64,000 bases of DNA from an uncultured Gemmatimonadales bacterium. Its GTDB lineage: Bacteria; Gemmatimonadota; Gemmatimonadetes; Gemmatimonadales; GWC2-71-9. How positions within the stretch are numbered: the first letter of the stretch is position 1; each line of letters opens with the position of its first letter. A program made the position numbers and the translations under genes. A model generated the notes under the pieces. The model was not told the DNA's origin and ran no database searches. It was given only the letters and a program-made list of their open reading frames with translations. The stretch lies in NCBI GenBank assembly GCA_963795085.1, contig CAWCFX010000001.1:1326352-1390351 (forward strand), read 5' to 3'. Positions 41,415-64,000 of this stretch are shown one piece after another.

Positions 41415-42263
41415 TCACCCGCATCCTTCGCTCTCGACGCGGGCCAGGGTGGCGGGGTCCGGCCGGCGCCGGGGCCGGAGATCTTCGCGCCAGCGGCGCT
41501 CGATATCGGCCAGGGTCTCGCCCCCGAGAAGCGAATCGGGCCGGGAGCCCTGTTGCCACAGCTGCTTCACGGCGGCAGTCCCATAGCGTTCCAGGATATG
41601 GTCCGCCAGGGCGGCGGCCTGGAGGTAGGCGCGGAGGTCGGGTTGCTCGCGGAAGCGGGCGAGCATCGTGTCGAGGGGAATCCAGCCGTGCCGGGCCGCG
41701 AGGGCGAGCAGGATGTCGGCGTTGGAATGCCGCGCGCAGGTCCCGTCGGCCGCCTGGGCCAGTCCCTCCACCAGCCAGTCGTTGCCGGGCGCCGGCCGAC
41801 CCCACGCATGCTGGGCGACGACATGCATGACCTCGTGCCGCTCGAACGCGCGCCAGTCCGGGTTCGTCACCAGGAAAACGGCGCGGGCGGAGGGTTGGGC
41901 AAAACCGGTCGCGCGGCCGCCGATCAGGGACGTCATCTGGGCCCGGCTTTCGATAAAGAACAGGTCAATCGGACCAGGGAGGGGGGGCGCCTCGGTGAGG
42001 GTGAGGGCATGGGACAGGGCTCCCGGCAGCCGGGCCAGCAGGCTGTCCTGGTGGGCCGCCGGGTAGGAACCGGCCGCGAAATACACCCGAAATCCCGGCA
42101 CACTGCGATGCAGCCAGGTGAACGCGGTATCGCCCAGGGCCGATGCCGCGAGTCCGGCCGGGGCCTGTGCGTCGATGGTTGGCGGACCGGCCAAAGCCAC
42201 GGTGAGGATGGCCCATACCGGGGTGATTATCCTGGGCGTGGGTGTCAGATACGAGGTGTGCAT
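41415..42263 (-). CDS. Secreted gluzincin (peptidase MA-like)
   Basis: 'HEVMH' plus 'WLVEGLA'. Confidence 0.8.
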   Translation of the reverse strand: MHTSYLTPTPRIITPVWAILTVALAGPPTIDAQAPAGLAASALGDTAFTWLHRSVPGFRVYFAAGSYPAAHQDSLLARLPGALSHALTLTEAPPLPGPIDLFFIESRAQMTSLIGGRATGFAQPSARAVFLVTNPDWRAFERHEVMHVVAQHAWGRPAPGNDWLVEGLAQAADGTCARHSNADILLALAARHGWIPLDTMLARFREQPDLRAYLQAAALADHILERYGTAAVKQLWQQGSRPDSLLGGETLADIERRWREDLRPRRRPDPATLARVESEGCG

Positions 42264-42523
42264 GGTGACCTCGCAACGGTGGAACGAGACAGCCGGTGCC
42301 GGTCGTCGAGGTGAAGCGTCAACGCACTGAGGCACCCGGCCGACGGTACTGACGACTGGCCGGCACGCCAAAAGCACTCAGTCATGGATAGGAGGATGGC
42401 CTTCGGTCGTGATCCGGGCCCGCGAGGCTGATTCGGTACCAAGGGCGGTCTTTCGATGATATGCGGCCTGCACTGGGGCTCATGCCACGCCGGCGAGGAC
42501 CTCATGCCGGGGGTGGCGCACCG

Positions 42524-42850
42524 TTACGCGCCGGGCGCCTGGTACCGGACCTGTTCGGCCTTACGCAGTGCCGCGATGGTTTCATCGACAGTCAGGAGGA
42601 CCGTCGTTTCCAGCGAGCTGAGCGCGCCGCCGCCACTGACCGCCAGCGCGACCGCGGCCATCGACACGTTGTCGGGAGCTTCCCAGAGATTGTACCCGTC
42701 GTGGGTGCCGAAGGCGTACCAGAACCCATGGAGCTTGCCGCCCACCGACTCGATGTACGCCTGGGCGGCCTTTCGGCGATCTTCCGGGTTCCGGATCAGC
42801 CTGGCCCAGGTCTCCGATGTGTAGCTGAACCTCGATAGATAGAGCGGCAT
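42524..42850 (-). CDS. GYD domain protein
   Basis: AAGGAG RBS; 'ESVGGKLHGFWYAFGTHDG'. Confidence 0.88.
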   Translation of the reverse strand: MPLYLSRFSYTSETWARLIRNPEDRRKAAQAYIESVGGKLHGFWYAFGTHDGYNLWEAPDNVSMAAVALAVSGGGALSSLETTVLLTVDETIAALRKAEQVRYQAPGA

Positions 42851-43126
42851 CGTCTGTCTCCTTCTTCGGCGGCCATGTGAGTCGCATGAAGGTGGCCGCC
42901 AGCTCTCTGGCGCGCCGCCCTGGGATGCCCATTGGCTGGGGGGTGCTCCAGCCGCACCATGAATGTTCCATATCCCGGCACCATCCACCAGTCCGGCGGG
43001 GTGCCGGTACCCGATCATCGGCCCGAGACACGCGGCGGTTGGGGCGGCGAAGGAAAGGCTCTCCCGTCAGGTTTCAGTCGTTCCGTCCCGCGGCACCTCC
43101 TCACTACGCCGACAGGTGCCCGGCTG

Positions 43127-43405
43127 TCATGCCTCGCGAATATGAAGGCGTGAACCGGGGCCAATCAACCGGCGCAGCTCCGCGACCGACGGAGCGTGAG
43201 CGAAGAGAAGCGCGACGTGACTTTCATCAGGCGTCACGTTGCGGAAGGACTCGATGCCCGTGATCTCCCAGGCCGCGGAACCGGCCGGGTCTTCCGGGGC
43301 GGCGAGCATCCCGACACGGATGGCGCCCTCGACAACTTCCCCGGCGATCACCCGCCCATGACCCTTGATCGCGAATATCGACTTTACCAGGAATGTCACG
43401 GCCAT
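43127..43405 (-). CDS. Small EF-Tu domain II-like beta-barrel protein (possible upstream start at 43549)
   Basis: '[27 protein letters not shown]...ITGIESF'. Confidence 0.65.
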
Positions 43406-43581
43406 CGGTGCCCATCCCTTGATATTTGCGATCGCCGTCAGGCTGCCGGTGCCGGCGGGGGTGCCCACGCGGAGGAGGCAATACCCGGGCATGGAGTGGA
43501 TGGGTAGCATGGGCGCCGGCCCGAGACGCCGCGAAGGCCAGGTGTTCATGGCCACACATCCTCCCGGTGCTCGCTGGAGCA

Positions 43582-43680
43582 GCGCAACGACTGCGTTCAC
43601 CGGCCGGCCGGGCTGCAGGGAACGCGATGTCCTGGGACAGCCGTACTGCCGGCCCGGCCACGTGTAACCCGGTGTTAGCC
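43582..43680 (-). repeat. attC site of a different family closing the catalase cassette
   Basis: Minus strand: GGCTAAC-N5-GTTACACG...GGTGAAC-N6-GTTGCGC; catalase TAA lies in R''. Confidence 0.75.
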
Positions 43681-45132
43681 GCCGGTGACGCCCTTGGCGA
43701 TGCGGTCGCCGATCTCCTTGTCGATGTTGCGCCAGTATGCGAACGCGCGCTGCAGCACGGGCTCGGAGACGCCGGCCTTGAGGTGCCCGACGACGTTGGA
43801 CACCAGTCGGTTGCGCGCCGCATCGTCCATGACCTTCGCGCACCAGGGCGCCGGCCTGGCCGAAGTCGTCGTCGTCCTTGTGCAGCGTGTAGGCGGCGCG
43901 GATGAACTCGCCGTCGGCTGCCCAGGTGGCCACCTCGGGATAGCGTTCGCCGTCCGCCTTCGGGCCGCCCTTCGAGTTCGGGGCGTACACCGGGTCCGAC
44001 ACGTTGTGGACCCGCATCGCGCCCGTCCTTGCTGTAGCTGTGCACCGGGCACTGCGGCGCGTTGACCGGGATCTGCTTGTAGTTGACCCCCAGGCGGTGA
44101 CGGTGGGCGTCGGCGTAGGCGAACAGCCGCCCCAGCAGCATCTTGTCCGGGCTGACACCGATCCCCGGCACGAGGTTGTTCGGTTCGAACGCCGCCTGCT
44201 CGATCTCGGTGTGGTAGTCGGTCGGGTTGCGGTTCAGCGTCAGCCGGCCGACCTCGTGCAGCGGGTAGTCGCCGTGCGGCCACACCTTGGTCAGGTCGAA
44301 GGGGTTGAAGCGGTAGGTCCTGGCTTCCTCGAACGGCATGATCTGCATCCTCAGCGTCCAGCTGGGGTGTTCGCCCCGCTTGATGGCATCGAACAGGTCG
44401 CGCCGATGGTAGTCGCCGTCCGCCCCCGCCAGCCGGTCGGCCTCCGTCCTGGGTGAGGAAGTCGATGCCCTGGTCGGTCTTGAAGTGGTACTTCACCCAG
44501 AACCGCTTGCCTGCCGCGTTGACCCACATGTAGGTGTGGCTCGAGTAGCCGTTCATGTGGCGCCAGTTCTTCGGGATGCCGCGGTCACCCATCAGCCAGG
44601 TGACCTGGTGGGCCGACTCGGGCGACAGCGTCCAGAAGTCCCACTGCATGTCGTGGTCGCGGAGGCCGTTGTCCGCACGACGTTTCTGCGAGCGGATGAA
44701 GTGCTGGAACTTCATCGGGTCACGGATGAAGAACACCGGCGTGTTGTTCCCCACCATGTCGTAGTTGCCCTCGGTGGTGTAGAACTTGAGCGCGAAGCCG
44801 CGTGGGTCACGCCAGGTGTCGGGGCTGCCGCGTTCGCCGGCCACCGTGGAGAACCGGATCAACGTGTCCGTCTTCGTGCCCGGCTGGAACACCGCGGCCT
44901 TGGTGTAGGCGCTGACATCCCTGGTCACCTCGAAGTGCCCGAAGGCTCCGAAGCCTTTCGCGTGGGGCTGGCGCTCGGGAATCCGCTCCCGGTTGAAGTT
45001 GGCCATCTGCTCGATGAGGTAGTGGTCCTGCAGCAGAATGGGTCCATCGGGCCCGACGGTCAGCGAGTGTTCGTCGCTGGAAACCGGGATCCCGGCATCG
45101 GTCGTCGTGGGCTTGGCGCCGTCCTGTGTCAT
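43675..45132 (-). CDS. katA: Monofunctional heme catalase with three +1 frameshifts (sequencing error or pseudogene)
   Basis: '[13 protein letters not shown]', '[13 protein letters not shown]', 'VGNNTPVFF', '[11 protein letters not shown]'; shifts near 44445, 44022, 43836. Confidence 0.9.
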
Positions 45133-45166
45133 GCTCAATCTCCCGTGAAATCGCGGTGGGACCGGA

Positions 45167-45264
45167 GCGATGCGGCTCGCGGTGTGGGTGGCATTCGCGC
45201 TCCACGCCTCCTGGTGTCCCGCTGGTGGCGTGGCGCGAATGGCCACTGCAGGCGCGTACCAGGC
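45167..45264 (-). repeat. Decayed attC of the main family (type B) between DUF5661 and catalase
   Basis: GTGGCATTCGCGCTC...TCCTGGTGTCC...GGCGCGAATGGCCACT.CA.GCGCGT matches the 60196/60619 copies; both core sites mutated. Confidence 0.85.
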
Positions 45265-45538
45265 GCGCCTGGACGTCCAATACGCATCTGCCTCTGCTTC
45301 AAGCTTGTCGAGGCGAGAGTAGTAGTCGGCGAATTCCTTGAGGTGAGCCCCGGCAATCTTTCCCGTGAGGATCAGGTCATCGTTCGTGACATCCTTGTCC
45401 GGATCCCGCGCGCCATGTTCCAGCTCAAACTTCAAGGCCGCGGCGAAACTGCTCAGGGTCGACCACCTTCCAATCTAACCCCAAACTGTCACCAACGTGC
45501 TTCCCCTCGTCAGCGCTGATCATGCGTGTTGTGGCCAT
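45259..45538 (-). CDS. DUF5661 family protein with a frameshift near 45428; stop codon lost
   Basis: '[13 protein letters not shown]...[27 protein letters not shown]'. Confidence 0.8.
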
Positions 45539-45569
45539 CGGAACCTCTCCCGGGCTGGAACGATGCACC

Positions 45570-45629
45570 ACCCGGCGGTGGGCGCGTGAGCGGCATTCGG
45601 GGTCACACGGGCGAGGCACGCGTGATGCC
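45570..45629 (-). repeat. Decayed, internally deleted attC
   Basis: ACCCGGCGGTGGGCGCGTGAGCGGCATTCGGGGTCA matches the family arm at 28 of 36 positions; lies just upstream of the DUF5661 start. Confidence 0.6.
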
Positions 45630-45830
45630 TTGCGCGTGCGGCGGCCAGCGCAGACGGAGGGGGGGCACGAATGGCGATGACGGGGCGGCTTCGTCTGCCT
45701 GCGCCAACCGGCCAGGCCTCGTCGACACGCTGCTTGCCCTTGCGCAGTGACACCCGGTACGTTGCCTTCTAAGGTGCCCGGGTGTCGGTCGGATGCAAGC
45801 CGGGGATCCCGGATGACCTGGGAGGCAGGC

Positions 45831-46313
45831 ATGAAGAAGTGGGTGAGACGCATCCGCGGCGCCATCGGGACGGGACTGACCTGGGCCGCGGCATGGTTCG
45901 GCGCGGGGATGATCATGTTGCTGGGGTCTCTGCTGGTCACCGGCAGTACCGGCGCCGACGTCCCCTACCCCCTGGGGTTTGGGGCCTTCGGCTTCGTCGC
46001 CGGCGTCGCCTTCTCAGGTATTCTGAGCCTTGCCGAGGGACGTCGCCGGTTTCACCAGATGTCCATGTCCCGCTTCGCGGGGTGGGGGGCGGCCGGTGGT
46101 TTCCTGCTGTCCGCGATCCTCGTCGTGGCCGTGGCCCTTGGGGAGGACCCGGGCTTCCTCGGAAACCTCGTGGTGCTGGGCCCCATCTTCGCGGTGGCGG
46201 GCGCGGGTTCTGCCGCGGGTTCGCTGGCCCTGGCCAGAAGGGCCGAAGACCGGGCCTTGCCGAAGGCCAGTGACGGCGAGACCGGGGGCGGGTCGTCTGA
46301 AGGAGAGCCATGA
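45831..46313 (+). CDS. Membrane hypothetical protein
   Basis: GGAGG RBS; four TM segments. Confidence 0.8.
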   Translation: MKKWVRRIRGAIGTGLTWAAAWFGAGMIMLLGSLLVTGSTGADVPYPLGFGAFGFVAGVAFSGILSLAEGRRRFHQMSMSRFAGWGAAGGFLLSAILVVAVALGEDPGFLGNLVVLGPIFAVAGAGSAAGSLALARRAEDRALPKASDGETGGGSSEGEP

Positions 46314-46452
46314 GGCTGGCAGGGTCAGTATCGCCGATGAGCTCCGAAGCAAGCACCCACCGCCCTCGAACCTCGAGTATCACAGGGGATCCCGGTCTGG
46401 GGCCCGACGGACGGCGCCGCCCTACGCCGCAAGAAGGTGATGGGCCTTCGCC

Positions 46453-46857
46453 CTAGGCACCTTTGTTCTTCTCGTCCCAGAGCTTCGGCTCCCAGAGTTC
46501 GACCTTGTTCCCGTCTGGATCCATGATCCATGCAAACGTGCCGTTCGCGTCCGCATCCGGTCCGCCGACGATGTCCACGCCACCAGCACGGAGCTGCTCC
46601 AGCAGTTCGCCGAGGTTGTCGACCCGGTAGTTGATCATGAACGACGACGTGCTCGGGCTGAACCACTTGCTGTCCTTGCCCGCGACATGCCATACCGTGA
46701 GGCCGTGATCCTCGGCCTTGTCGTCCGGCCACTTGAGAATGGCGCCGCCAAAGTCTTCCAGCCGCAAGCCCAGGTGTTTCCGATACCATTCGGCCAGTGC
46801 CGCGTGGTCGCCCGTGCTCTTGAAGAAGACGCCGCCGATACCAGTAACCCTCGCCAT
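46453..46857 (-). CDS. VOC/glyoxalase family protein
   Basis: 'RVTGIGGVFFK', 'FMINYRV', 'DPDGNKVELWEP'. Confidence 0.92.
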   Translation of the reverse strand: MARVTGIGGVFFKSTGDHAALAEWYRKHLGLRLEDFGGAILKWPDDKAEDHGLTVWHVAGKDSKWFSPSTSSFMINYRVDNLGELLEQLRAGGVDIVGGPDADANGTFAWIMDPDGNKVELWEPKLWDEKNKGA

Positions 46858-46880
46858 CGTTTTACCCCTCCCCTGGTCGC

Positions 46881-46975
46881 CGTTAACAGTCGTGCGCCTG
46901 AGCGCCGTTCGCTTCACCCAATGACTGGCGGTCCTGGCAGCCGCAGCCGAACGTGGCTCCGGGCGGATGGCCGCC
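46881..46975 (-). repeat. Heavily decayed attC
   Basis: TAACAGTCGTGCGCCTGAGCGCCGTTCGC...TGGCGGTCC...CGAA...CTCC is colinear with the consensus; lies just upstream of the VOC start. Confidence 0.5.
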
Positions 46976-47078
46976 CTGAGCCTGCTCGACCGCCGTCGCC
47001 GACCAGGCGAGAAAGCCGGTGACCACGTCCTCCCGTACGCTCGCGCCTGCCCGTTTCACCTGCCTGGTGCCAGGCAGC

Positions 47079-47510
47079 CTACGCCGTCACGTCACGGCCT
47101 GGCGGCCGGTAGATGAGGGCAATGACGATACCCGAGCCGACCCATTGCAGGAAATAGGCGACGGCCTGGAGCAGGGCCAGCCGGAGCCCGATGTTCAGGC
47201 TCACGTAGTTGTGCAGCATGAACGAGCCCGCGGTGAAGACGCCGACCAGGACGCCAAAGCGGAGCCCCTGGGTGAGAACGGGGCCCTCGCGAAAGGCGAG
47301 GGCGTAGAGCGCGGCGAGCGCCATCATCGCGATGAGCAGGGCCACCATCCCGACCGGTGCCACCCGCTGCATGGACTCCGGCGGGCGGTACACGGCCGTA
47401 TACTGGCGGACTTCGTCGGCCAGGGGCAGGACGGCGAAGAGCAGGAAGCCGATCGCAAAGTACGCGACGGTGGCACCCAGGCCGGCGAGCGCAATGCGGG
47501 AGAAGTTCAG
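47079..47510 (-). CDS. Membrane protein; start codon appears as CTG
   Basis: Frame open from CTG 47510 (LNFSRIALAGLG...), in-frame TGA at 47522; four TM segments. Confidence 0.7.
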   Translation of the reverse strand: MNFSRIALAGLGATVAYFAIGFLLFAVLPLADEVRQYTAVYRPPESMQRVAPVGMVALLIAMMALAALYALAFREGPVLTQGLRFGVLVGVFTAGSFMLHNYVSLNIGLRLALLQAVAYFLQWVGSGIVIALIYRPPGRDVTA

Positions 47511-47919
47511 GGGTTCGTCTCACGCTTGACGGTGACAGGTGGTCGAGCGAGCGTCCTGCGGCGAACGCCGGCGAGCCCGCCGCTTCCGACAGCACCGGCA
47601 TGCGACGGCCGCGATGCCCGGGTAGCCGGTGTCCTCAGAACGTCGCCCGCCCGTTGGTGACCACCCGCAGCACCGACTGCTGGGGAAGCGGGCCTCATAC
47701 GGGTCGATCACCGCTGCACAGGCACGCCTGCTGTCCCCCGGGGAGCGCATCGCATGGCTGTCGCTTCGCGTCGAACCACCGGCTCATCGCGTTCGGATCA
47801 GCCATCAGGGGGCCTCAGGCTGTGTCGATTCTGGGGCTTGGCGTGGCAAGAAATCTGGGGTCGCTGCTCGGGGCTGGCAAGGTAGCGGTGGGTATGGTCT
47901 AGTCGCCCCGGTCCGGGTC

Positions 47920-49128: not shown

Positions 49129-49159
49129 GACCGCCGGAAGCGAGAGGGGTGGGGCCGGG

Positions 49160-49756
49160 CTACGCCCGGCGGACAGGGTAACGCAGGTGGGTAACGCCGA
49201 CGCCCGGCGTCACGGCCGGAGTGCCCAGGCTGATGGGCGGGCCGGCGAGGCGGTCGAAGAGTCGCACGCCGGAGCCAAGAAGAACCGCCGCGATATCGAC
49301 GTGGATCTCGTCGAGGAGGCCGGCGTTGAGGCACTGCTGGATGGTGTCAGCCCCGTGGACTCCCACGGATTTTCCCGCGGCGGCGGCCTTGGCTTGGCTC
49401 ACGGCGCTTGCGATCCCGTCGGTCACGAACTGGACCGTCGAGCCGGGGCGCGGCCATCCCGCGGGGACGTGGTGGGTAAGCACGAAGGCCGGTCCCCAGG
49501 CATGATTGCCGCCCCAGCCTTGGGCGACCTCGAAAGTGCGCCGGCCGGTAAGCACCGCCCCGAGTTCGGACCAGAGTCCGCGGAGGTGCCCGGCGCTCGG
49601 CCCGGACACCTTGAACGTCATGGGGTCAGACCCTCCGGTCTGGAAGGCGACGTCTCCCGAGGAGAAGTACCAGTCGAACACCGCGGCCACCCCGTCGTTG
49701 CGGTCGGCGACGTAGCCGTCAAGCGACATGGACATGATGGCGACAACCTTCGACAT
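49160..49756 (-). CDS. Dihydrofolate reductase-like (RibD C-terminal) protein
   Basis: 'MSMSLDGYVA', 'GRRTF', 'GLLDEIHV'. Confidence 0.9.
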   Translation of the reverse strand: MSKVVAIMSMSLDGYVADRNDGVAAVFDWYFSSGDVAFQTGGSDPMTFKVSGPSAGHLRGLWSELGAVLTGRRTFEVAQGWGGNHAWGPAFVLTHHVPAGWPRPGSTVQFVTDGIASAVSQAKAAAAGKSVGVHGADTIQQCLNAGLLDEIHVDIAAVLLGSGVRLFDRLAGPPISLGTPAVTPGVGVTHLRYPVRRA

Positions 49757-49785
49757 TCTGACGTTCCCTGGTGTGGGGGCGTGGG

Positions 49786-51003: not shown

Positions 51004-51123
51004 GGGTTGATGTCCCCGCATCAGCGGCAGGGCGCGGAGTGTTTCGGGGGACGTACCCGGCGGACACAGGCCTTGCCAGCCTGGCCGCCGGCCGAGCGCG
51101 GACGGCTGCATGCGGTGGTTCCG
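51004..51123 (-). repeat. Probable decayed attC of another family
   Basis: Minus strand AAC-CACCG-CATGCAGC...GCTGATG-CGG inverted arms with one extra base; core GTT lost. Confidence 0.5.
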
Positions 51124-54213: not shown

Positions 54214-54261
54214 AAGCGGTCCCCGGTGTTGGTGGTGAGGCGAAGGGGGTGGCTCGGCGCC

Positions 54262-54369
54262 GCCTGACGAAACGCGCTTTAGCTGCGGCCTGCGGCGGCC
54301 GCAGACAAGATAGACCCGTTCGCTCTCAGGCGGACGCCGCGGGCCGACAGCTTCAAGCGCTGGTTAGGC
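54262..54369 (-). repeat. attC of a different family (R' = GTCAGGC)
   Basis: GCCTAAC-N5-CTTGAAGC...GCTAAAG-N8-GTCAGGC with long inner inverted arms. Confidence 0.85.
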
Positions 54370-54732
54370 AGCGGCATTCCATGCCTCTTCAAGCCATCGA
54401 CGGGCGTGGGCATCTAGGTCGGCCTTCGAACGGAGTTCAAGATGGTGCATGAATCGCCCGGGCGCTGGCTGGACGACTTGCTTCCAGCGGCGGGACCGGT
54501 CGCGGCGTTGCAGGGCGATCGAGAGCACCAAGGGAGGACGTTTGCCGCGGAGGTACTGGGCGGGGACCCAGACCCAGGCAAAGGCGCGGCGGCGTCGGAA
54601 CGCGACCTGACTCCTGGTGACCCGGATGCCTGTGGGCCCAATGCCTAAGAGGAGCTCCTGAACTCGGTCGAATAGCGGCCGCGAGGCGGGGTACCGAGAG
54701 AAGAACTTGTCAATCGACGTTGACGGGGTCAT
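54364..54732 (-). CDS. Cassette DUF5655-like protein
   Basis: 'TRSQVAFRRRRAFAWVW', 'RFMHHLEL'; TAA in R''. Confidence 0.8.
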   Translation of the reverse strand: MTPSTSIDKFFSRYPASRPLFDRVQELLLGIGPTGIRVTRSQVAFRRRRAFAWVWVPAQYLRGKRPPLVLSIALQRRDRSRRWKQVVQPAPGRFMHHLELRSKADLDAHARRWLEEAWNAAA

Positions 54733-54792
54733 TTCGCAGCTTCCCGCGACTTGTAACGAGCCGAATACCAAGGGAGATAGCGGCTTGCTGCT

Positions 54793-54889
54793 GCATAACG
54801 GTTTGCGCTTGAGTGGCAACCGCGCTGATCATGTCTCAGCGTCCATCGGGCGGTCTGGCGCGAATGGCCACTCCAAGCGCGTGTTAACA
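54793..54889 (-). repeat. attC (main family, mosaic)
   Basis: 97-bp copy. Confidence 0.92.
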
Positions 54890-54894
54890 GCAGC

Positions 54895-55461
54895 TTAGCA
54901 GGAGGCTAGCTGAGCGGGGCTGCGGCATAAAGCGATCCTATCAGACTTCATCTGACCCGAGGATGAGGCAAACGTAACCCGCGTCAGTGGACGCTGTGTT
55001 TTGAAAATGTGCTTTTGCTCGTTGAACCGAATCGCGAGTTGGCCTGGCATGGACCAGTCGACAGATAAGACCGTCGTATCACCTACAGCCGGAGGAGACT
55101 GGATCTCCACACGGTCGGTCGGAGTACTACCCACTAAGTAAATCATACGCGCTATCATGGGACGGTTTTTCGTTGGGAACGCCATTTGAAGTAGAATCGC
55201 TTCACTGGAATCACCGAGAATGACACTGAAAAGTGGACTCCACTCGGGGTTATGTCGCAATGCCCCTACGACAAGGTGAGCGTCCAAATGGGTGGCTGGG
55301 GTGAGGTCTTCAATGGTCCAGTTAGAAAAGTGTCCCTCTGGGGTGTCCAGGTCGAACGAGAACGAGCTGAGCCCGATGCTTGTTGATGCCTGCCCGGCCA
55401 GAGGAGTAGAAATGGCAGCGACCGTCAAGATCCAGAGGATACCGGCGCTTAGCGGGCGCAT
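54895..55461 (-). CDS. Cassette secreted hypothetical protein
   Basis: GAGGAG RBS, signal peptide, beta-rich. Confidence 0.75.
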   Translation of the reverse strand: MRPLSAGILWILTVAAISTPLAGQASTSIGLSSFSFDLDTPEGHFSNWTIEDLTPATHLDAHLVVGALRHNPEWSPLFSVILGDSSEAILLQMAFPTKNRPMIARMIYLVGSTPTDRVEIQSPPAVGDTTVLSVDWSMPGQLAIRFNEQKHIFKTQRPLTRVTFASSSGQMKSDRIALCRSPAQLASC

Positions 55462-55491
55462 GAGATATCTCCTCAAAGAGGGTGTGCTGCT

Positions 55492-55588
55492 GCTTGACGG
55501 TGTGCGCTTGAGCGGCAACCGCGCTCAGCATATGGGGGCGTCCAGCGGGTAGCCGGGCGCGGTTGACCGCTCCAAGCGCGTGATAGGC
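55492..55588 (-). repeat. attC (main family) with both core triplets mutated
   Basis: R'' GCCTATC, R' GTCAAGC. Confidence 0.9.
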
Positions 55589-55594
55589 TGCCGT

Positions 55595-56140
55595 TTAGTG
55601 CGATCCCAACCCGAGCCCAACTGTCCAGATCGGGGGATTCCTGTCATCATAGAGAGTATGAAAGGTGACGCCGGCGGCCAGCGTTATGCCCACGCGCCTG
55701 CTCAGAGGCACTCCTAGGCCGGATCGAACCCCGAGGCCCAGGCCGGTGCCGTCCTGGATTCTGCTTTGGGTCGGGCCCCCGGCATTGATCGAATAGGAAT
55801 ACAGAGGGACGTTACTGTGCAACACCGAAGCCCCAAGAGCAACAAAAGGACTGAGCTTTTGTGACTCGCCTTGGGAGTACAGAATCTCGCTTCCCAACGC
55901 GATCACTTGGCGATGTTCGGAGAACTGGCCCATGCCCACCGAGGAGTAGCTAAAGGGTACTCCGATGCGCCAATGAGATGAAATCCGCCGGGCCAAGCCG
56001 ATGCTGAATCCCACCCCATCATTGCCGAACGCGTGTGTATAGTGCCCGGAAGCATTCCAAGACCACGACGGAGTGTCCTGCGCGTTACCAGGAGCCGTAA
56101 TGATGCAGGGAACCAGCAACATCAGTGAGCGAAGCGTCAT
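55595..56140 (-). CDS. Cassette small outer-membrane beta-barrel protein
   Basis: Signal peptide, alternating beta-strand pattern, 'SPFVALGA'. Confidence 0.7.
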   Translation of the reverse strand: MTLRSLMLLVPCIITAPGNAQDTPSWSWNASGHYTHAFGNDGVGFSIGLARRISSHWRIGVPFSYSSVGMGQFSEHRQVIALGSEILYSQGESQKLSPFVALGASVLHSNVPLYSYSINAGGPTQSRIQDGTGLGLGVRSGLGVPLSRRVGITLAAGVTFHTLYDDRNPPIWTVGLGLGSH

Positions 56141-56163
56141 TTGCCTTGATCTGGATTACGGCA

Positions 56164-56261
56164 GCCTAACGGTTTGCGCTTGAGTGGCAACCCGCGCTCA
56201 GCATATAGTGGCGTCCAGCGGGTACCTGGGCCCGGTTGACCGCTCCAAGCGCGTGTTAAGC
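56164..56261 (-). repeat. attC (main family, mosaic)
   Basis: 98-bp copy. Confidence 0.93.
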
Positions 56262-56576
56262 AGCGCCGTTGGGATCTGGATCAGTCCCCTTCGACCGCTC
56301 GCCAGGCGCATATCCAAACATTTCTTTGGCAATGGCGCGAAACTCTTCGGCCCCAAAGGGCTTGTCGGGCACCCTTCCGGGGTCTGCTTCACGCATACTG
56401 AGCCAGAACACTCGTCCGAACAATGTTTCAATGCGTTCCTGCTCCGCCGCAGATATGGCTCCAGGCGAGTAGTGGAGGCCAAAGTCCCCGCAGGTATGGA
56501 GCTCGTGAGCCGCCGCGGCGAGATCGAGGTCCCCTGCCAGGTAGCGCTGAACTATTGCGAGTGAGTTAACATTCAC
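56256..56576 (-). CDS. Cassette hypothetical protein
   Basis: AGAGG RBS, GTG start, TAA in R''. Confidence 0.7.
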   Translation of the reverse strand: MNVNSLAIVQRYLAGDLDLAAAAHELHTCGDFGLHYSPGAISAAEQERIETLFGRVFWLSMREADPGRVPDKPFGAEEFRAIAKEMFGYAPGERSKGTDPDPNGAA

Positions 56577-56592
56577 GAGGCCTCTTGGCGCT

Positions 56593-56690
56593 GCTTAACG
56601 GTTCGCGCTTGAGCGGCAATCCGCGCTCAGCATATGGGGGCGTCCAGCGGGTAGCCGGGCGCGAATGGCCACTCCAAGCGCGTGTTAGGC
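56593..56690 (-). repeat. attC (main family, mosaic)
   Basis: 98-bp copy. Confidence 0.93.
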
Positions 56691-56694
56691 GGCC

Positions 56695-57189
56695 CTAGAA
56701 AGTGAAGCCCACTTGAAACCGGGGAAAGGCCAGACTCGACATCCCCAGGTTCGGCTTCCCCCACAGCGGTGGAACCACTGCCAGTCCAAAATCAGTAAAA
56801 ACCCGCTGATTTCTCATCCACAGGCGCTGGCCAAACTCGATAAGGAGTGACCCTGAGTTCCGGAGGGAGCCCCATCCAATCCAGGTGCCAAGCCCAAAGT
56901 ATGACTGGCAATCGCTAAAGAATCCTGAACCCAAAGCAACCTCTGCGTATGGCGTCACGCCATCCCTCCCAACTCCAACACCTAACAGAACAGGGGAAGA
57001 GCCGATTGACTCGGTAAAGCGCACACCGAGCGTGGCGGTATTGGCTCCCAATCCGATGGCAAGGAAGTGCGTGTGGTTGGGATCCCACTGCTCGAGGGGC
57101 GAGGGATCTTGCGCAGCACTCTCATTCGCGGCTACCAGAAGAAAGAGAGCGGCTTTGGCCAAGGCTTTCCCAATCACGGTGCTCTCCAT
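56695..57189 (-). CDS. Cassette outer-membrane beta-barrel-like protein
   Basis: Signal peptide; C-terminal beta-signal-like 'FQVGFTF'. Confidence 0.7.
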   Translation of the reverse strand: MESTVIGKALAKAALFLLVAANESAAQDPSPLEQWDPNHTHFLAIGLGANTATLGVRFTESIGSSPVLLGVGVGRDGVTPYAEVALGSGFFSDCQSYFGLGTWIGWGSLRNSGSLLIEFGQRLWMRNQRVFTDFGLAVVPPLWGKPNLGMSSLAFPRFQVGFTF

Positions 57190-57194
57190 GGGCC

Positions 57195-57292
57195 GCCTAA
57201 CGGTTTGCGCTTGAGCGGCAACCCGCGCTCAGCATATCCTGGCGTCCATCGGGTGGCTCGGCGCGGTTGACCGCTCCAAGCGCGTGTTAGGC
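57195..57292 (-). repeat. attC (main family, type A)
   Basis: 98-bp copy. Confidence 0.95.
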
Positions 57293-57850
57293 GCCGATTC
57301 GCTGGACTGCCCCTTGGGCATCGCGAATCTGGGTGTAAACCTGCCGCGCATTCTCGATCATCTCAAAACTAGGGGGCTGAAACTTGCTCATACCAGGCCA
57401 GCCCGCCCCGGCAAAGAAGCTATATCGCGGGTCACCGGAACCCAAAGCGATAGTTCCACTACGATCGCCCGCCTCTTTCAAGGATACATCGGCTAAGCCA
57501 TGGAGGGTCAGACTCTTTACACCCTTGGCGGTCCGAATGATCACCCGTTGATCGGTAAGGCCATAGTAGGTGCGGCTGCGTTGATAGCTGTCGAAGAAGA
57601 AGCGCCCGACTGTGATATAGAGGCCCACCAACACAAACGGTATGCCCCAAAGGGCAAAGAAGAGTGGCCCGCTTTGGCGCAGAGCGCTCACTTCCCAAAA
57701 CACGGCGAACCCACCCCACATCAGACTGAAAGGGATCATCACGGTGTCCGCAGCTCGTAGTCGGACTCCTTGACGTGGGCGGCCGGACCAGAGCAGGCGC
57801 TCGCTGGACCCAAGTTCTCTCTGAAGCTGGTGTTGAGATTCAAAGTCCAT
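57287..57850 (-). CDS. Cassette membrane protein with bacterial PH-like domain
   Basis: 'ERLLWSGRP', two TMs, 'TYYGLTDQRVII'; TAA in R''. Confidence 0.85.
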   Translation of the reverse strand: MDFESQHQLQRELGSSERLLWSGRPRQGVRLRAADTVMIPFSLMWGGFAVFWEVSALRQSGPLFFALWGIPFVLVGLYITVGRFFFDSYQRSRTYYGLTDQRVIIRTAKGVKSLTLHGLADVSLKEAGDRSGTIALGSGDPRYSFFAGAGWPGMSKFQPPSFEMIENARQVYTQIRDAQGAVQRIGA

Positions 57851-57869
57851 TGGGATCTCGGCTATCGGC

Positions 57870-57967
57870 GCCTAACGGTTTGCGCTTGAGCGGCAATCCG
57901 CGCTCAGCATATCGTGGCGTCCATCGGGTGGCTCGGCGCGGTTGACCGCTCCAAGCGCGTGTTAGCG
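57870..57967 (-). repeat. attC (main family, type A)
   Basis: 98-bp copy. Confidence 0.95.
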
Positions 57968-58475
57968 CCGCGCTCTGTTGGAGAGATCGAAATGCTTGAA
58001 CCTCGGCTGCGGGCAGTCTGATGAAACTGCCAACAGCTTGTCCCTCAAGGTTGCCCACCTGTCAGGTTGAACCCTGCCGCGTAAACCCAGCTGATCGCGA
58101 ATCCGACCAGCGCAAGGACATGTTCCGCGGCTGCGGATGCCAACTTGCAGTCTGCAAAGCCTGAGAGGACTAGTAATCTGCCGGGCATGCTGCCTCATCA
58201 GGCCACAGACAGTCGCGGACTGGGCGAGTCCGGAGACTGGCTCAAAGACATCGCCGGCAAACTCAGGCACCCGTGAAGCATGGCTCGAGTGTTACTCGCA
58301 TCACGAATCACAGGCGAGATCCCCGCGCCAGCAACCGACGGACCTCGCTTGTCCGCGAGAGCCAGTACCGTCGCTTCGTGGTCCGCAGAGACACTCAGGC
58401 GGCGGCTGTGCGTCGAGGTCTCCGATTGCGACTCGACGCGATCGAAATATCCGCATCATAGGATCCTTGGCGCGC

Positions 58476-58573
58476 GCCTAACGGTTTGCGCTTGAGCGGC
58501 AATCCGCGCTCAGCATGTGGTGGCGTCCATCGGGTAGCCGGGCGCGGTTGGCCGCTCCAAGCGCGTGTTAGCC
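58476..58573 (-). repeat. attC (main family, type A)
   Basis: 98-bp copy. Confidence 0.95.
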
Positions 58574-59074
58574 GCACGCCCGGCTGAGAGCGACCCAGAG
58601 TCGTGAGCGGCAACCTGCATCCGAGCGCCATATCAGCTGCCGATGCAAGGCTCGGACCCGCCGAGCAACTGCAGTGCCGAGTCGGCACTACAGCCCGAGT
58701 CGCTTGCACGTCCGTGATATGACGTCCACGATGTCGACGGGCTGCACAATGCTAGACTTGTCAGCTTGACGAACGACGGACGTCCGTACCGTGAGTTCGG
58801 AGACCAGGGCGATCGCCTGCGAGGACTCGGCGACTCAATCAACGCGTCCTTGGCCCAGCGTAGTCGGGACTGCCGCTAGGGGCATCCGCCATCGTGCAAG
58901 ACTCAAGCCAGGCGCGAATGAAGGTCTGCGTGCGCGGCTGCCAGGCCGCAGCAGACGAGTCCGGATGAGGCACCGCGGTGCAGCGAGCTGCGACCGAGCA
59001 GCATGGCTGCTGCATTTCCATGTCGAGATGCGCCAGCATGGCTGCGTAAGGCCATTGGAGTCGTCCGAGCAGCG

Positions 59075-59172
59075 GCCTAACGGTTTGCGCTTGAGCGGCA
59101 ACCGCGCTCAACATGTGGTCGCGTCCCAGCGGGTAGCCCGGCGCGGTTGACCGCTCCAAGCGCGTGTTAGGT
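59075..59172 (-). repeat. attC (main family, type A)
   Basis: 98-bp copy. Confidence 0.95.
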
Positions 59173-59637
59173 GGCGCTTTGCCGGATAGCTGCACGAGCG
59201 GCGATTGCCCGCAACTGTTCATGCGGAAACGGGAATCCCCACTTCTTCTGATAGCCTTGGGCGCCGTGCTCATTCAGCAAAGATTGAAGCGACATGCCTA
59301 TCTGACCGGCGAATGACATTAGGGATGTCCTGCAATCGAAAGAGGGTGCTGCAAGTCGGGCACTGGCCAGATCATCCCCGTTGTCCCCGAGCCCGCGGAA
59401 GACCTGAATTCTGATCTGCATGGCCGGAAGTGGCTCCAGCCGCAAAAGAGTAAGGTGCGGCTCTCCCTCAAAAACCACCTCCTGTGCGGACGCGCCTCCC
59501 AGGAGTCGGGTGGTTGCCTTAGCAAGGTCGCTGGCGCAATCGGTAAGGTCGGAGGCGACAATAGTCGTGCCCTGCCGACCTTCCTTTAGGGTCAGCTGCG
59601 ACCACCCGCTGCCATCCAACACAAGGCTGATTTGCAT
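59167..59637 (-). CDS. Cassette hypothetical protein
   Basis: ORF fills the cassette; TAA in R''. Confidence 0.8.
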   Translation of the reverse strand: MQISLVLDGSGWSQLTLKEGRQGTTIVASDLTDCASDLAKATTRLLGGASAQEVVFEGEPHLTLLRLEPLPAMQIRIQVFRGLGDNGDDLASARLAAPSFDCRTSLMSFAGQIGMSLQSLLNEHGAQGYQKKWGFPFPHEQLRAIAARAAIRQSAT

Positions 59638-59656
59638 AGATGCTTTCGTTAGCGCC

Positions 59657-59753
59657 ACCTAACGGTTTGCGCTTGAGCGGCAACCGCGCTCAGCATGTGG
59701 TGGCGTCCAGCGGGTAGCCGGGCGCGGTTGACCGCTCCAAGCGCGTGTTAGGG
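59657..59753 (-). repeat. attC (main family, type A)
   Basis: 97-bp copy. Confidence 0.95.
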
Positions 59754-59762
59754 AGCACGCGT

Positions 59763-60176
59763 CTATTCTGCCGACTCGGCCAGCGCTTCCCGAAGACGCT
59801 GCTGAGCAGAATCAAGATCAGGCGTGGCTGCTGCAGGAAACTGAGTGACCAATGTGCCACCTCGCGTGATGTACCACTGTGCCTGGCCTGGATCAACATC
59901 CGGATGCCCGGCAAGGACGTCGGTCAGGGGAATGTGATGGAGCCGGTAGACGATCTGGTTCATCGTGACTTCGAACACATGTTTTTCCAACCAAGCCGTT
60001 GCCAATGCCTTCAGAGCAGTCGCATCTGCGATATCCTGAAAACATCCCAACGGGGGCCCGTCAGCTTGAACGATCCAGAAATGCTGAGGTTTAGGGTCAT
60101 CTTGAAAGCGTACCAAAGCCTGCCGTCGCAGCTGGTATATCCCAGTCAGATGCCAAATCGTTGGACCTAACATCAT
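59763..60176 (-). CDS. Cassette hypothetical protein
   Basis: 137-aa ORF fills the cassette. Confidence 0.7.
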   Translation of the reverse strand: MMLGPTIWHLTGIYQLRRQALVRFQDDPKPQHFWIVQADGPPLGCFQDIADATALKALATAWLEKHVFEVTMNQIVYRLHHIPLTDVLAGHPDVDPGQAQWYITRGGTLVTQFPAAATPDLDSAQQRLREALAESAE

Positions 60177-60195
60177 TCGGAGACCTGTGCGTGCT

Positions 60196-60292
60196 CCCTA
60201 ACGGTTTGCGCTTGAGTGGCATTCGCGCTCATCATGTCCTGGCGTCCAGCGGGTGGCCCGGCGCGAATGGCCACTCCAAGCGCGTGTTAGGC
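60196..60292 (-). repeat. attC (main family, type B)
   Basis: 97-bp copy, internally identical to the 60619 copy. Confidence 0.95.
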
Positions 60293-60571
60293 ATCCGCTT
60301 TGGTGGTTGCTTCTCGTCGTGATGTGCGACGCGACAGCCACCACACAAACGTAAAGGCAGTCGGCGGGCCAAAGACGAGAAGTGTTAGCACAGCGGGATT
60401 CCCTGAGATACCAAGTATGCCGACAACTGTTTCTGAGTCGTGCTTGTTCGGGAAGTAAAACTGGTTTATCGATTGGGTGATCACCCAGTCAACGTACGCA
60501 CCTATTATGACCAGCCAGCCCACCCATGCTGCAACCACTCGCCAGCGTGACCAGTGTCTTAGGGGCAACAT
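60287..60571 (-). CDS. Cassette small membrane protein
   Basis: GGAGG RBS, two TMs, TAA in R''. Confidence 0.75.
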   Translation of the reverse strand: MLPLRHWSRWRVVAAWVGWLVIIGAYVDWVITQSINQFYFPNKHDSETVVGILGISGNPAVLTLLVFGPPTAFTFVWWLSRRTSRREATTKADA

Positions 60572-60618
60572 TGTTCACCCTCCAAGTGTCTGCCGCACCA
60601 GCGGAACGCGACGCGGAT

Positions 60619-60715
60619 GCCTAACGGTTTGCGCTTGAGTGGCATTCGCGCTCATCATGTCCTGGCGTCCAGCGGGTGGCCCGGCGCGAATGGCCACTCC
60701 AAGCGCGTGTTAGGC
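60619..60715 (-). repeat. attC (main family, type B)
   Basis: 97-bp copy. Confidence 0.95.
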
Positions 60716-61028
60716 GCCAGCGTGCCAACTGAGCCGGTGAGGTGCCGCTCCACTAAGTCCACGCTAGATCGGCTGAGGTGACCTGCCACACTTGGGACAA
60801 GCGATCAGGCCGGGCACAAGTTCTCGCATGGCTGATGCATCTGCGGGACAGAACCACGGACCGCCAATCCGAAAGTCACGGCGAGCTCCGGTAGCGCTTC
60901 AGTTGCGTCGTGATCAGACGTGAGCTGCAAGGCCATCCTCGAGGTGTCTGGAGAGCCCCATACTGCCTGTGCGCCAGGCTGAGTCTGGGCCAACGTGCTC
61001 CAGCTGAACCCGCACTCGGGCAAAACAC
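60716..61028 (-). pseudogene. Frameshifted Cys-rich (zinc-ribbon-like) cassette gene
   Basis: AGGAGG RBS and GTG; fragments 'FCP', 'WFCPAD', 'CPKCG' fall in different frames. Confidence 0.5.
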
Positions 61029-61056
61029 AGAATCCTCCTGGAAGCGTGCAGGTGCC

Positions 61057-61153
61057 GCCTAACGGTTTGCGCTTGAGCGGCAACCGCGCTCAGCATGTGG
61101 TGGCGTCCATCGGGTAGCCGGGCGCGGTTGACCGCTCCAAGCGCGTGTTAGGT
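61057..61153 (-). repeat. attC (main family, type A)
   Basis: 97-bp copy. Confidence 0.95.
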
Positions 61154-61558
61154 GGCCCGGCTCTGTATACAGTCCCCTAGTGTAGCCGTGGCGCGCCATT
61201 CCCAACGATGCTGTGGGCCGATCACATCGCCGATCCAGACTACCGAACCCTCAAGTACGCCACGGTGTGAGTGCAACGTGAGCCAGGTAGACTCCGAACC
61301 ACCACGCCACTCGATGAGGATAGAATCGGCGTCTGCCTTCCAAGTCCCTCGAAGCGAGAAGAACGTGGCGTGAACGCTATCATGCGAGGTAAGTGCGACC
61401 CATTCAGCAGTACCGTTCTGACCACTTCCCTCCAAACGTACTTCGCGGGGCAGGGTTAGCGCACTGGAGTCTGGATATGCGACAAGGAGGCACTGACCTG
61501 TGCCAGGTAAGACAAGAGGCGACGGCGACGCGGCACACGCAGCCAATAGAGTGAACAC
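61148..61558 (-). CDS. Cassette hypothetical lipoprotein (start uncertain)
   Basis: 'LLAAC'; TAA in R''. Confidence 0.7.
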   Translation of the reverse strand: MFTLLAACAASPSPLVLPGTGQCLLVAYPDSSALTLPREVRLEGSGQNGTAEWVALTSHDSVHATFFSLRGTWKADADSILIEWRGGSESTWLTLHSHRGVLEGSVVWIGDVIGPQHRWEWRATATLGDCIQSRAT

Positions 61559-61611
61559 TAGTCCGAAGCTAGCCGGTATGAACTCGCATCTAACCTTAAA
61601 CGTCTAGGGCC

Positions 61612-61709
61612 ACCTAACGGTTTGCGCTTGAGCGGCAACCCGCGCTCAGCATATGGTGGCGTCCATCGGGTAGCTCGGCGCGGTTGACCGCTCCAAGCGC
61701 GTGTTAGGC
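61612..61709 (-). repeat. attC (main family, type A)
   Basis: 98-bp copy. Confidence 0.95.
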
Positions 61710-61725
61710 GGATGCTGCTGACGTG

Positions 61726-62263
61726 CTAATGGCAAACGACAACACCGCCAAGTGCGTTCACAGCTCGCGGACTATCGTCGGCGCGCACATAATCCTGAGT
61801 CATTGTGAAAAAGCAAGCATCACTGGTTGGCACAAAGATGGCTATCACAAGCCTAAGGGTATCAGCCGTTTTGGCGTCAGGAGTATTGAAACGGACTCCA
61901 AACTTGGCAAAACTGCCAGCGCCAACAGCCATCATACTATCATTCCAAAGACCTCCGACCGCGCTGTTGAGTCAATAGGTGCGAAAGCCAATCCAAAGCA
62001 AGTGGCCGTGCCTTCAGGTGTGAAGCGTCCCAGACATCTGGAAATAGCAAAAGATTTATGGGCCTGATACTGTCAGGGCGACCACGGAATAGCGGATCGC
62101 GGCTGGCCATTATTGCTGCCGGCACCTGGCCAAGAGCAGATTCATACATCGCATATGAGGTCTGATCGTCCACAATTGGCTTGGGGGCGTTCCTACCTTG
62201 AGCAGGAACACAGCCGGCGAGCCAAATGCCGATAAGCCACAACTGGTTCAAGGAGATCTTCAC
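61726..62263 (-). pseudogene. Cassette lipoprotein gene split into two ORFs
   Basis: 61940-62263 (lipobox 'LAGC') and 61726-61935 are consecutive on the same strand. Confidence 0.55.
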
Positions 62264-62270
62264 GGCATCC

Positions 62271-62368
62271 GCCTAACGGTTTGCGCTTGAGCGGCAACCC
62301 GCGCTCAGCATATCGTGGCGTCCACCGGGTAGCTCGGCGCGGTTGACCGCTCCAAGCGCGTGTTATGC
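62271..62368 (-). repeat. attC (main family, type A)
   Basis: 98-bp copy. Confidence 0.95.
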
Positions 62369-62496
62369 AGCGATTCCGCCGCGCGGAGCCGCCGCCAACG
62401 TCTGGCCTTCCTCCGTAGTGTACTCGCCGGCTGGAAATCCGCTACCATCTGCCCGGACGTGTTACGTCCCAGGCTCTCTGCCGAATCCGAGGCTTT

Positions 62497-62781
62497 CCGC
62501 CCGCACCATTGGACGTTTCCGCAGCAACCGCGAGCACGATCCCGCCGCCCATCTGCCCGGGCGCTCCAGGCTGGCATCGGAGGGGCGGGGAACACGGAGC
62601 GGTTGGACGCAACCGCGCGGATCAATCTGCCCCGGCGGCGAAGCGAACGCCCAGCTGGGAAGCGACATGCTTACCCGGACCTGGCCGTACGTGGATCATT
62701 TCACATTCCGCGGGCCGCCGCCATCACCAATTGATGCTTCCTTAGCAACCGCGAGCGCGAACTCGCCGCCCACCTTCCCGG
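62497..62781. repeat. Two diverged 64-bp direct repeats inside one cassette
   Basis: 62497-62560 vs 62718-62781, ungapped, 51/64 identical. Confidence 0.85.
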
Positions 62782-62851
62782 ACCGCGGAAGCCGGACTGG
62801 GAGGCCCGTTTAAGAGGATGCCGTAGTTAATTCTCTGTTGGGACGGCCGCT

Positions 62852-62938
62852 GCATAACGGTTTGCGCTTGAGTGGCATTCGCGCTCATCATGGCGTCCAG
62901 CGGTGGCCGGCGCAATGCACTCCAAGCGCGTGTTAGCG
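62852..62938 (-). repeat. attC (main family, type B), shortened to 87 bp by small deletions
   Basis: Both arms recognisable. Confidence 0.88.
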
Positions 62939-63337
62939 CCAATCACCGGTGGAGCTGAGGACTGCGGATTGCCGGCTGCGGCGCGCGTAACATGCCGCAC
63001 CGGGTTGGGACGGTACTCACCAAGTCACCGACGTCTCAGTTCACCTGTTGGGTCATCGCTCTAGGCCCGGATCTATGATCCGGGGATCAAGCAGGACGGA
63101 TAGGGCTACGAAGCGTCCACCTCAACGGACCATGCCTGCGACGGCACCGATGTCGCAAGTCGTTCGGCGCTATCAGCGCTATCAAGGTCAAAGCACGTAC
63201 ACAATCGCTGTAGGTGCCGAGTAACGGGTCAGATTGCAAATACTCGACTGTTCGTTCGCGATACTCGCGCAATCCACCGAATGGCATAACGCGGTGTCCT
63301 TGGCTGCGATCTCGAAGAACTGAGATGATGGTGCGGC

Positions 63338-63434
63338 GCCTAACGGTTTGCGCTTGAGTGGCATTCGCGCTCATCATGTCTCAGCGTCCATCGGGTGGCC
63401 TGGCGCGAATGGCCACTCCAAGCGCGTGTTAGAC
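63338..63434 (-). repeat. attC (main family, type B)
   Basis: 97-bp copy. Confidence 0.95.
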
Positions 63435-63905
63435 CGCGGCGTCGGACGACTTCCTCGGCTTGGTGATGAGCCGAAGGCCCCCAAAGACCAGCACTACGGC
63501 CAAGAGAAGGCGTGGACCTGTCCAGCTTATGGACGGAAGGAAGCGGCTCCACCCCGCCTGAACTGCCATAAACCCTAGCGTGACAATTGACAGCCATCGT
63601 GCCAAGCGTGACCGGCCTAGGAGAAAGCCACCTGCCGCGGCGCCTACAAAAGCGATGGGCCCCAACTCGTGGAAACCCCGAAACACAAGATCGGGAAAGC
63701 GATAGCCTTGCCTCACCAGAAGCTGGACGGTCAACGCCGCGCCTATCACTAAGCCTCCAATGATGAATCCAGCCCCGGCCCAGCGTTCCGGCCGGTGGCC
63801 GGTTCCCGATATACTGGAGCTTTGGAGTCGCTCCAATGCCCTCGGGTGAGGCGCGCTTTGGCCGAGGGCCTCCACACGTTGAGCTGGGGTTCGGGTCGGT
63901 TTCAC
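63429..63905 (-). CDS. Cassette membrane protein
   Basis: Four TMs; TAA in R''. Confidence 0.75.
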   Translation of the reverse strand: MKPTRTPAQRVEALGQSAPHPRALERLQSSSISGTGHRPERWAGAGFIIGGLVIGAALTVQLLVRQGYRFPDLVFRGFHELGPIAFVGAAAGGFLLGRSRLARWLSIVTLGFMAVQAGWSRFLPSISWTGPRLLLAVVLVFGGLRLITKPRKSSDAAV

Positions 63906-63924
63906 ACGGGATCTCCGGACCGCG

Positions 63925-64000
63925 GTCTAACGGTTTGCGCTTGAGCGGCATTCGCGCTCAGCATATCGTGGCGTCCATCGGGTGGCCGGGCGCGAATGGC
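63925..64000 (-). repeat. attC (main family), truncated by the window end
   Basis: GTCTAACGGTTTGCGCTTGAGCGGCATTCGCG... Confidence 0.9.

Follow-up and report, generated by a model that had tools for sequence, protein, structure and literature searches.

A catalase gene beside a decayed attC site: a probable fossil cassette in the chromosomal integron of an uncultured Gemmatimonadales bacterium

Sedentary chromosomal integrons, such as the Vibrio superintegron and the arrays of Xanthomonas, are built from cassettes that each consist of one open reading frame (ORF) and its own attC recombination site, inserted in array orientation and lacking a promoter. The attCs within such an array are mostly homogeneous, with occasional foreign ones, and the cargo consists mostly of small genes of unknown function. 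The consensus of an attC comprises R'' RYYYAAC and R' GTTRRRY, 57-141 nt apart, while clusters of attCs and single attCs that lack an integrase are termed CALIN and SALIN, respectively, in the vocabulary of IntegronFinder. Here we describe a catalase gene (43675..45132, minus strand) within a 64,000-nt stretch of DNA, referred to below as the window, which forms the last 64 kb of contig C1 (CAWCFX010000001.1) in the assembly of an uncultured Gemmatimonadales bacterium (GCA_963795085.1; 3.9 Mb in 6 contigs) and which carries part of an integron array. The sequence evidence makes it probable that this gene was horizontally acquired and captured as an integron cassette that has since become a fossil. 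In the literature listings and abstract openings consulted, no description of a catalase as an integron cassette was found, nor anything relevant on integrons in Gemmatimonadetes.

The nearest described counterpart of the integron in this genome is located on plasmid 1 of Gemmatirosa kalamazoonensis (NZ_CP007129.1), whose integrase is the closest in the plasmid collection searched (54.3% identity, compared with 48.3% for IntI1). This plasmid carries 36 attCs, the first of them 665 nt downstream of intI and on the same strand, and no catalase is present on it. Two arrays of 15-nt tandem repeats occur upstream of its intI (15461-15887). Class 1 integron plasmids were set aside as a source of attCs (their arrays were truncated or lay at the edge of the record) and the Gemmatirosa array was used instead. 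Two covariance models were thus available: R1, which represents the attCs of the genome studied here, and R2, which was trained only on 31 attCs of the Gemmatirosa plasmid integron.

The window gene encodes a small-subunit monofunctional haem catalase (Pfam Catalase, PF00199, E 1.2e-110) and no other PF00199 gene is present in the genome. As assembled it extends over 1458 nt, from an ATG at 45132-45130 to a TAA at 43677-43675. The first-pass annotation, made from the sequence alone, had described a full-length catalase; the gene is real and of normal length but it is not intact. Three-frame translation and tblastn with the closest homologue placed single extra bases at 44445, 44021 and 43834, which divide the coding sequence into in-frame pieces at 45132-44446, 44444-44022, 44020-43835 and 43833-43678, followed by the stop. 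The frame of the ATG therefore holds only positions 1-222 of the 383 in the Pfam Catalase profile plus the C-terminal Catalase-rel domain; the middle part, including the segment around the proximal-tyrosine motif (44444-44022), sits in the two other frames, a six-frame search yields the domain in two pieces, and no single open frame contains all of it. The ORF appears intact because three +1 shifts amount to one codon and the GC-rich alternative frames lack stops, and the 586-codon ORF listed at this position is correspondingly misleading. Read through the three extra bases, the protein has a length like that of its homologues (484 amino acids), and its N-terminal 229 residues match PDB entries 9t0l, 1gwe and 4b7f (E 5.7e-117 to 5.3e-99). 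As assembled, the predicted product is non-functional. The case carries a general caution, namely that a long open frame in GC-rich DNA, with a correct start and a correct stop, can conceal three frameshifts.

The distribution of the gene points to a foreign origin. Its N-terminal part was not found in any of four genomes of the same genus (64-94% complete), nor in any of 16 genomes of the same order; it was detected in two of 24 genomes of the same family (at 64% and 25% identity). The best relatives come from many phyla, with 86-94% identity over the N-terminal part and, in the best case, 89.7% over the full length. DNA similarity to the congeners stops near 41.3 kb, except for a weak match (67%) at 45820-46247. 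Around the conserved neighbours (38.5-41.3 kb) the congeners offer only short contigs, and a profile of the main attC family of this genome found no match in them at E 1 or better. None of the 160 homologous catalase loci scanned contains a main-family attC.

The catalase lies at one end of a long array. The well-preserved part of this array (54258..64000, minus strand) comprises a variant attC (54258-54374), 16 main-family attCs of about 98 nt each, which begin at 54.3 kb and continue to the end of C1, and a last, partial attC where the contig ends; these delimit 17 cassettes of 340-616 nt. R2 detects 16 attCs in the window, and for every one of them the minus strand scores higher than the plus strand. 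The genes follow the same polarity: every gene from 42.5 to 64 kb is on the cassette strand, and the 11 ORFs for which Pfam gave matches in 42.5-56.2 kb are without exception minus-strand ORFs (GYD, catalase, DUF1761, HGSNAT_cat, RibD_C, glyoxalase, UbiA, DUF4440, DinB_2, DUF5655 and a weak outer-membrane-protein barrel), and none of the 10 plus-strand ORFs tested matched Pfam at the E limits used. Contig C1 terminates in the middle of an attC and contig C2 starts within a cassette, continuing with 21 further main-family copies in unchanged orientation (C2:361-11394) and, 4.2 kb beyond the last of them, an open intI of 328 amino acids (C2:15552-16487, minus strand; TIGR02249, 375 bits against a cut-off of 265). 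The way the two contigs end, together with the intact intI in matching orientation, suggests that the integron, which has at least 38 attCs, is probably complete and was merely divided between contigs in the assembly. The direction of intI is that of the cassettes, so that it is transcribed towards the array, resembling the arrangement known as an inverted integrase.

Immediately upstream of the catalase is a decayed attC of the main family (45163..45269, minus strand), which belongs to the preceding cassette. R1 detects it with 41.2 bits (E 3.1e-10), against 7.7 bits for the plus strand, and an nhmmer search across the genome puts it at 45185-45265 (E 1.2e-7). Its end is 31-47 nt from the catalase ATG, according to the crossover position assumed. 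Its inner stem is retained and folds (z -4.9 and -4.5 relative to shuffled sequences), and both R boxes have been lost, making it unlikely to recombine. The inferred catalase cassette would extend from the crossover predicted after this attC to the G of R' of a second site downstream (43588..45179, minus strand, 1592 nt). It would begin with a leader of 47 nt (45133..45179, minus strand) that has a ribosome-binding site, GGGAGA, 7 nt before the ATG. The first bases of the leader, (CG)AGCCGC, are complementary to the extension of the candidate R'', GCGGCT(AA); the best start register, at 45180, reads GCGAGCCGC where GTTAGCCGC is expected, giving seven matches in nine positions against a background of 3.3%. 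Complementarity of this kind is common in the main array, where the first bases of 10 of the 17 cassettes are perfectly complementary over at least 11 nt to the extension of the cassette's own R''. Similarity to other copies of the gene supports the same boundary. Catalase contigs about 95% identical to the window were recovered from runs of four studies, and those from two runs match the window as far as 45177 (for one of the two, another 25 letters beyond this point were not compared); at the other end they reach 43641 and 43647, inside the candidate attC, where the contigs themselves end, and they are too short to show neighbouring genes. The unit lies in array orientation and has no recognisable promoter of its own, a simple consensus scan having returned no sigma-70-like promoter in 43000-46500. 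At 1.59 kb it is the largest recognisable unit of the array, so that the unusually large cargo proposed at the outset is borne out within this array.

The downstream site is a candidate attC of 99 nt (43582..43680, minus strand), arranged as R'' GGCTAAC, 5 nt, L'' GTT[A]CAC ... L' GTGAAC, 6 nt, R' GTTGCGC. The catalase TAA lies inside R'' (43680-43674), as the first-pass annotation had pointed out along with the upstream remnant. Both outer boxes fit the consensus at six of seven positions and contain the AAC and GTT, respectively. The inner boxes pair with each other, the spacers of 5 and 6 nt are canonical, and the extrahelical base is carried on the R''-L'' arm, at the position where the Gemmatirosa attCs have theirs. 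Four boxes at canonical spacing occur 32 times in the genome (7.8 Mb, both strands) compared with 9-15 times in shuffled sequence, and among 129 homologous catalase loci the pattern was never seen within 30 nt of the stop codon (seven occurrences anywhere on the catalase strand). In a targeted search of 301 nt, R2 aligned to the candidate end to end and box for box (10.1 bits, E 0.0093). From these features we infer that 43582-43680 is an attC.

A number of observations weigh against capture as a cassette, most of them concerning this downstream site. The description of it as a well-formed attC holds for the four boxes but not for the fold: the segment 43578-43684 does not form a stable hairpin, with z -0.35 on the plus strand and -0.74 on the minus strand (64 and 42 of 200 shuffled sequences fold as well), compared with -4.9 and -3.4 for the main attC family. 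Constrained fold energy was tried as a further measure and rejected, since it ranked the candidate 150 of 1174 AAC...GTT pairs without separating it from background. R'' and R' pair at only four Watson-Crick positions plus one G-T. At the scale of the window, R1 returned 6.8 bits (E 1.8 in 16 kb); R2 gave an E-value of 2 over 64 kb and placed the site 32nd among 54 hits, with three non-array hits scoring equal or higher; under R2 the plus strand of the candidate scores nearly as well (9.2 bits). There is no other copy of the element in the genome, and 400 other genomes of the phylum yielded only short, weak matches to it (best E 1.2e-6). At the opposite end of the unit, the TT expected at the cassette start reads CG, and both the four-box test and the seven-of-nine test were framed after the site had been seen. 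A contig from run X7, about 95% identical to the window gene, diverges exactly at the stop codon and has a different hairpin there. None of 160 homologous loci (80 from genomes and 80 from metagenomes) shares the flanks of the window, and only one has an attC-like site. Finally, the array is tied to intI through a join between C1 and C2 that is deduced from their ends.

Much of this would be accommodated if an ordinary horizontally transferred gene had landed beside the array without the involvement of IntI, the 99-nt element then being an imperfect, GC-rich palindrome whose likeness to an attC is accidental. The poor fold, the covariance scores at window scale and the singleton status of the element all fit such an origin, as do the divergence of the X7 relative at the stop codon and the spread of the catalase clade across phyla mostly without attCs (159 of the 160 loci show none). 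It fits poorly with the position of the four-box pattern, which falls exactly on the stop codon, on the array strand and with its bulge on the expected arm, and with the similarity to the 95%-identical relatives, which starts at the predicted crossover beside the attC remnant. No intrinsic terminator was found in 43000-46500, and, as set out below, the clade does occur as a cassette elsewhere. We regard transfer without IntI as rather unlikely. Capture as a cassette is the better-supported history on the strength of position, strand, boundaries, absence from congeners and the existence of a second catalase bounded by attC features.

This second case was recovered by scanning the 160 homologous loci (1.37 Mb) with R2, as the first-pass annotation had recommended for catalase genes in other genomes. 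The scan gave a single significant match, at 1838-1914 of metagenome contig LGVC01000333.1 (24.4 bits, E 0.0017 over 472 kb), which closes a lone catalase cassette (228-1909). The cassette contains an intact gene for a catalase of 484 amino acids, 87.5% identical at the DNA level to the window gene; a GTTAGGC core lies 61 nt before its ATG, and its attC forms a hairpin (z -3.2 and -3.95) 88 nt after the stop, with an R'', GCCTAAC, that is perfectly complementary to the upstream core. The GC content is 61% inside the unit compared with 42% and 46% outside it, which marks the unit as foreign to its host. The starts of the two units vary in step with their R'' boxes, AGCC/GGCT in the window and AGGC/GCCT in LGVC01000333.1. 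Alignment of the two leaders and 3' flanks with MAFFT revealed no clear homology beyond the boxes; by manual alignment the two cassette starts match at nine of 11 positions, with an estimated chance of about 0.03. The two loci share the catalase clade, a GTTRRRY core upstream and an attC downstream, but differ in that the metagenome unit has an intact gene and a well-folding attC set back from the stop, and the 5.4 kb available of its contig shows neither an array nor an intI. LGVC01000333.1 is a related cassette, not the same unit as that in the window. An ORF at its beginning (3-209, minus strand) was considered as an IntI fragment and rejected, and downstream of the cassette are an unknown ORF of 412 amino acids and an AAA ATPase.

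The frame breaks raise a separate question, that of whether the gene is really broken in the organism. Every one of the ~95%-identical contigs that covers the sites has one base fewer at 44446, 44020 and 43833/4, and homologous catalase loci typically align with exactly three gaps. The metagenome contigs compared derive from other organisms and not from the source sample, and with regard to source-sample reads, no public run searched contained more than 0.19 of the sampled words. The three one-base insertions are probably local errors of the consensus rather than real mutations, since the read-through protein has no other sign of decay: at 247 columns conserved in at least 97% of 104 homologues it has no deviation, compared with a mean of 2.0 among the functional homologues, and thus it carries no trace of relaxed selection. 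That all three changes are single-base insertions in the same direction is likewise unlike the usual course of pseudogene decay in bacteria, which is deletion-biased and rich in substitutions.

The competing explanation, that the catalase is a genuine decaying pseudogene, in that case a very recent one, and the insertions are real mutations of a silent distal cassette, is less probable and draws on the quality of the assembly elsewhere. No frameshift-like junction was found in 34,134 amino acids of 72 orthologues compared with a congener; rpoB, rpoC, two dnaE-type genes and uvrA all keep a single frame, the neighbouring cassette-like genes have full-length Pfam matches, and the attCs around the catalase are themselves decayed. 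Errors confined to this gene could nevertheless have arisen if the 90-95%-identical copies of other organisms that are common in the four metagenome runs compared (soil, permafrost and beach sand) disturbed read recruitment or polishing for the catalase alone. The only other frameshift-like break among the genes checked is in a uvrA paralogue (C1:523198-525910), split into two adjacent frames near 524543. The local excess of frame errors, together with the wide occurrence of the gene in the metagenome runs searched, might also be taken to mean that the catalase stretch is a mis-assembly in which DNA of another organism was joined into the contig. This is very improbable, given that the unit (0.665) and the DNA around it (0.666-0.677) have the same GC content, that a remnant of the genome's own attC family lies within 50 nt of the unit, and that its borders coincide with no contig break or repeat.

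If capture by the integron is accepted, the catalase would have entered the chromosome as a cassette made up of the ORF, its 47-nt leader and its own "foreign" four-box attC, presumably inserted by IntI. It would now lie near the integrase-distal end of a sedentary chromosomal integron, where sites have decayed. The unit is probably fixed in place, as the upstream attC is devoid of R boxes and its own attC pairs poorly, and the gene is probably silent, having no promoter of its own and being more than 30 kb from the integrase end. Acquisition as a cassette is the best-supported reading of this locus, but with a frameshifted gene, an upstream site stripped of its R boxes and a weak downstream site the unit is not demonstrably functional; it is at best a fossil cassette, and probably no longer mobile.

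The surrounding region conveys the same impression of a fading array end. Between the catalase unit and the well-preserved part, 45270-54257 holds about 9 kb of cassette-like genes on the minus strand (DUF1761, an HGSNAT-type acyltransferase, RibD_C, glyoxalase, UbiA, DUF4440 and DinB_2), in which only four decayed or variant attCs could be detected: three main-family remnants identified by nhmmer and the covariance model (52183-52285, 52781-52844 and 53678-53780, all minus strand) and the variant site at 54258-54374. Recombination sites appear to erode towards the distal end, and the locus illustrates such decay in a large array. On the other side of the catalase, three more minus-strand ORFs occupy 41415-43552, between the unit and the conserved core that ends near 41.3 kb. 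A covariance model search found no significant attC in this interval; the TAA of the GYD-domain gene located there lies inside a GCGTAAC (about 42530-42524).

Several further features of the genome were noted. Between intI and the first main-family attC of C2 are three genes that do not resemble cassettes (C2:12188-14853). One, on the plus strand, encodes an AraC regulator; the other two, on the minus strand, encode a PLP (pyridoxal phosphate) decarboxylase and a cupin. Three other clusters of main-family-like attCs are found far from intI and are CALIN-like (C1:621.7-627.2 kb, C1:1096.4-1098.2 kb and C6:416-441 kb), all on the strand opposite to the window array. Within the window, R2 also scores 20.0 bits (E 0.0038 window-wide) at 24648-24713 on the plus strand, far from the array, which is either a false positive or a stray site, and a scan at Rfam gathering thresholds gave no matches. 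The GC content is mostly 65-72% and drops to 58-62% over the final 10 kb. A Ser/Thr kinase with TPR repeats (34417-36645) has a kinase domain with well over 100 paralogue matches at the DNA level in this genome and the four congeners pooled, and looks like part of a large lineage-specific expansion. On C3, words resembling GGAACCC(A/G)ACGTTGAAG make up short tandem units at 379.6 kb and at the contig end (396.3 kb), 17 kb apart.

A tentative possibility is that a catalase cassette lineage circulates among the integrons of bacteria from unrelated phyla in soil and sediment. Should this be true, integrons would be one of the means by which a highly conserved catalase clade has spread so widely by horizontal transfer, and would carry full-size oxidative-stress enzymes in addition to small accessory genes. 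A catalase cargo of 1.5 kb would be a readable example of environmental integron trade, in this case in peroxide defence.

Set against the systems from which we began, the locus combines familiar and unfamiliar traits. As an enzyme, its read-through length is typical of the small-subunit haem catalases represented by the PDB entries cited above, from which the gene differs by its three frame breaks. As a cassette, it agrees with those of Vibrio and Xanthomonas in the placement of its stop codon within R'', in its orientation and in the lack of a promoter, but departs from them in that its cargo is a 1.46-kb stress enzyme of housekeeping type, both bounding sites are degraded and the gene is frameshifted as assembled. 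The Gemmatirosa plasmid integron is like that of the present genome in having intI transcribed towards the array, and its attCs, mostly 94-99 nt long, share the architecture of the candidate (CTAAC, 5 nt, GTT plus a bulged base ... GAAC, 6 nt, GTT), while beyond the boxes they have no sequence likeness to it. Taken by itself, the part of the array on C1 is, like a CALIN, devoid of an integrase; it differs from one in that the following contig carries an intact intI in matching orientation.

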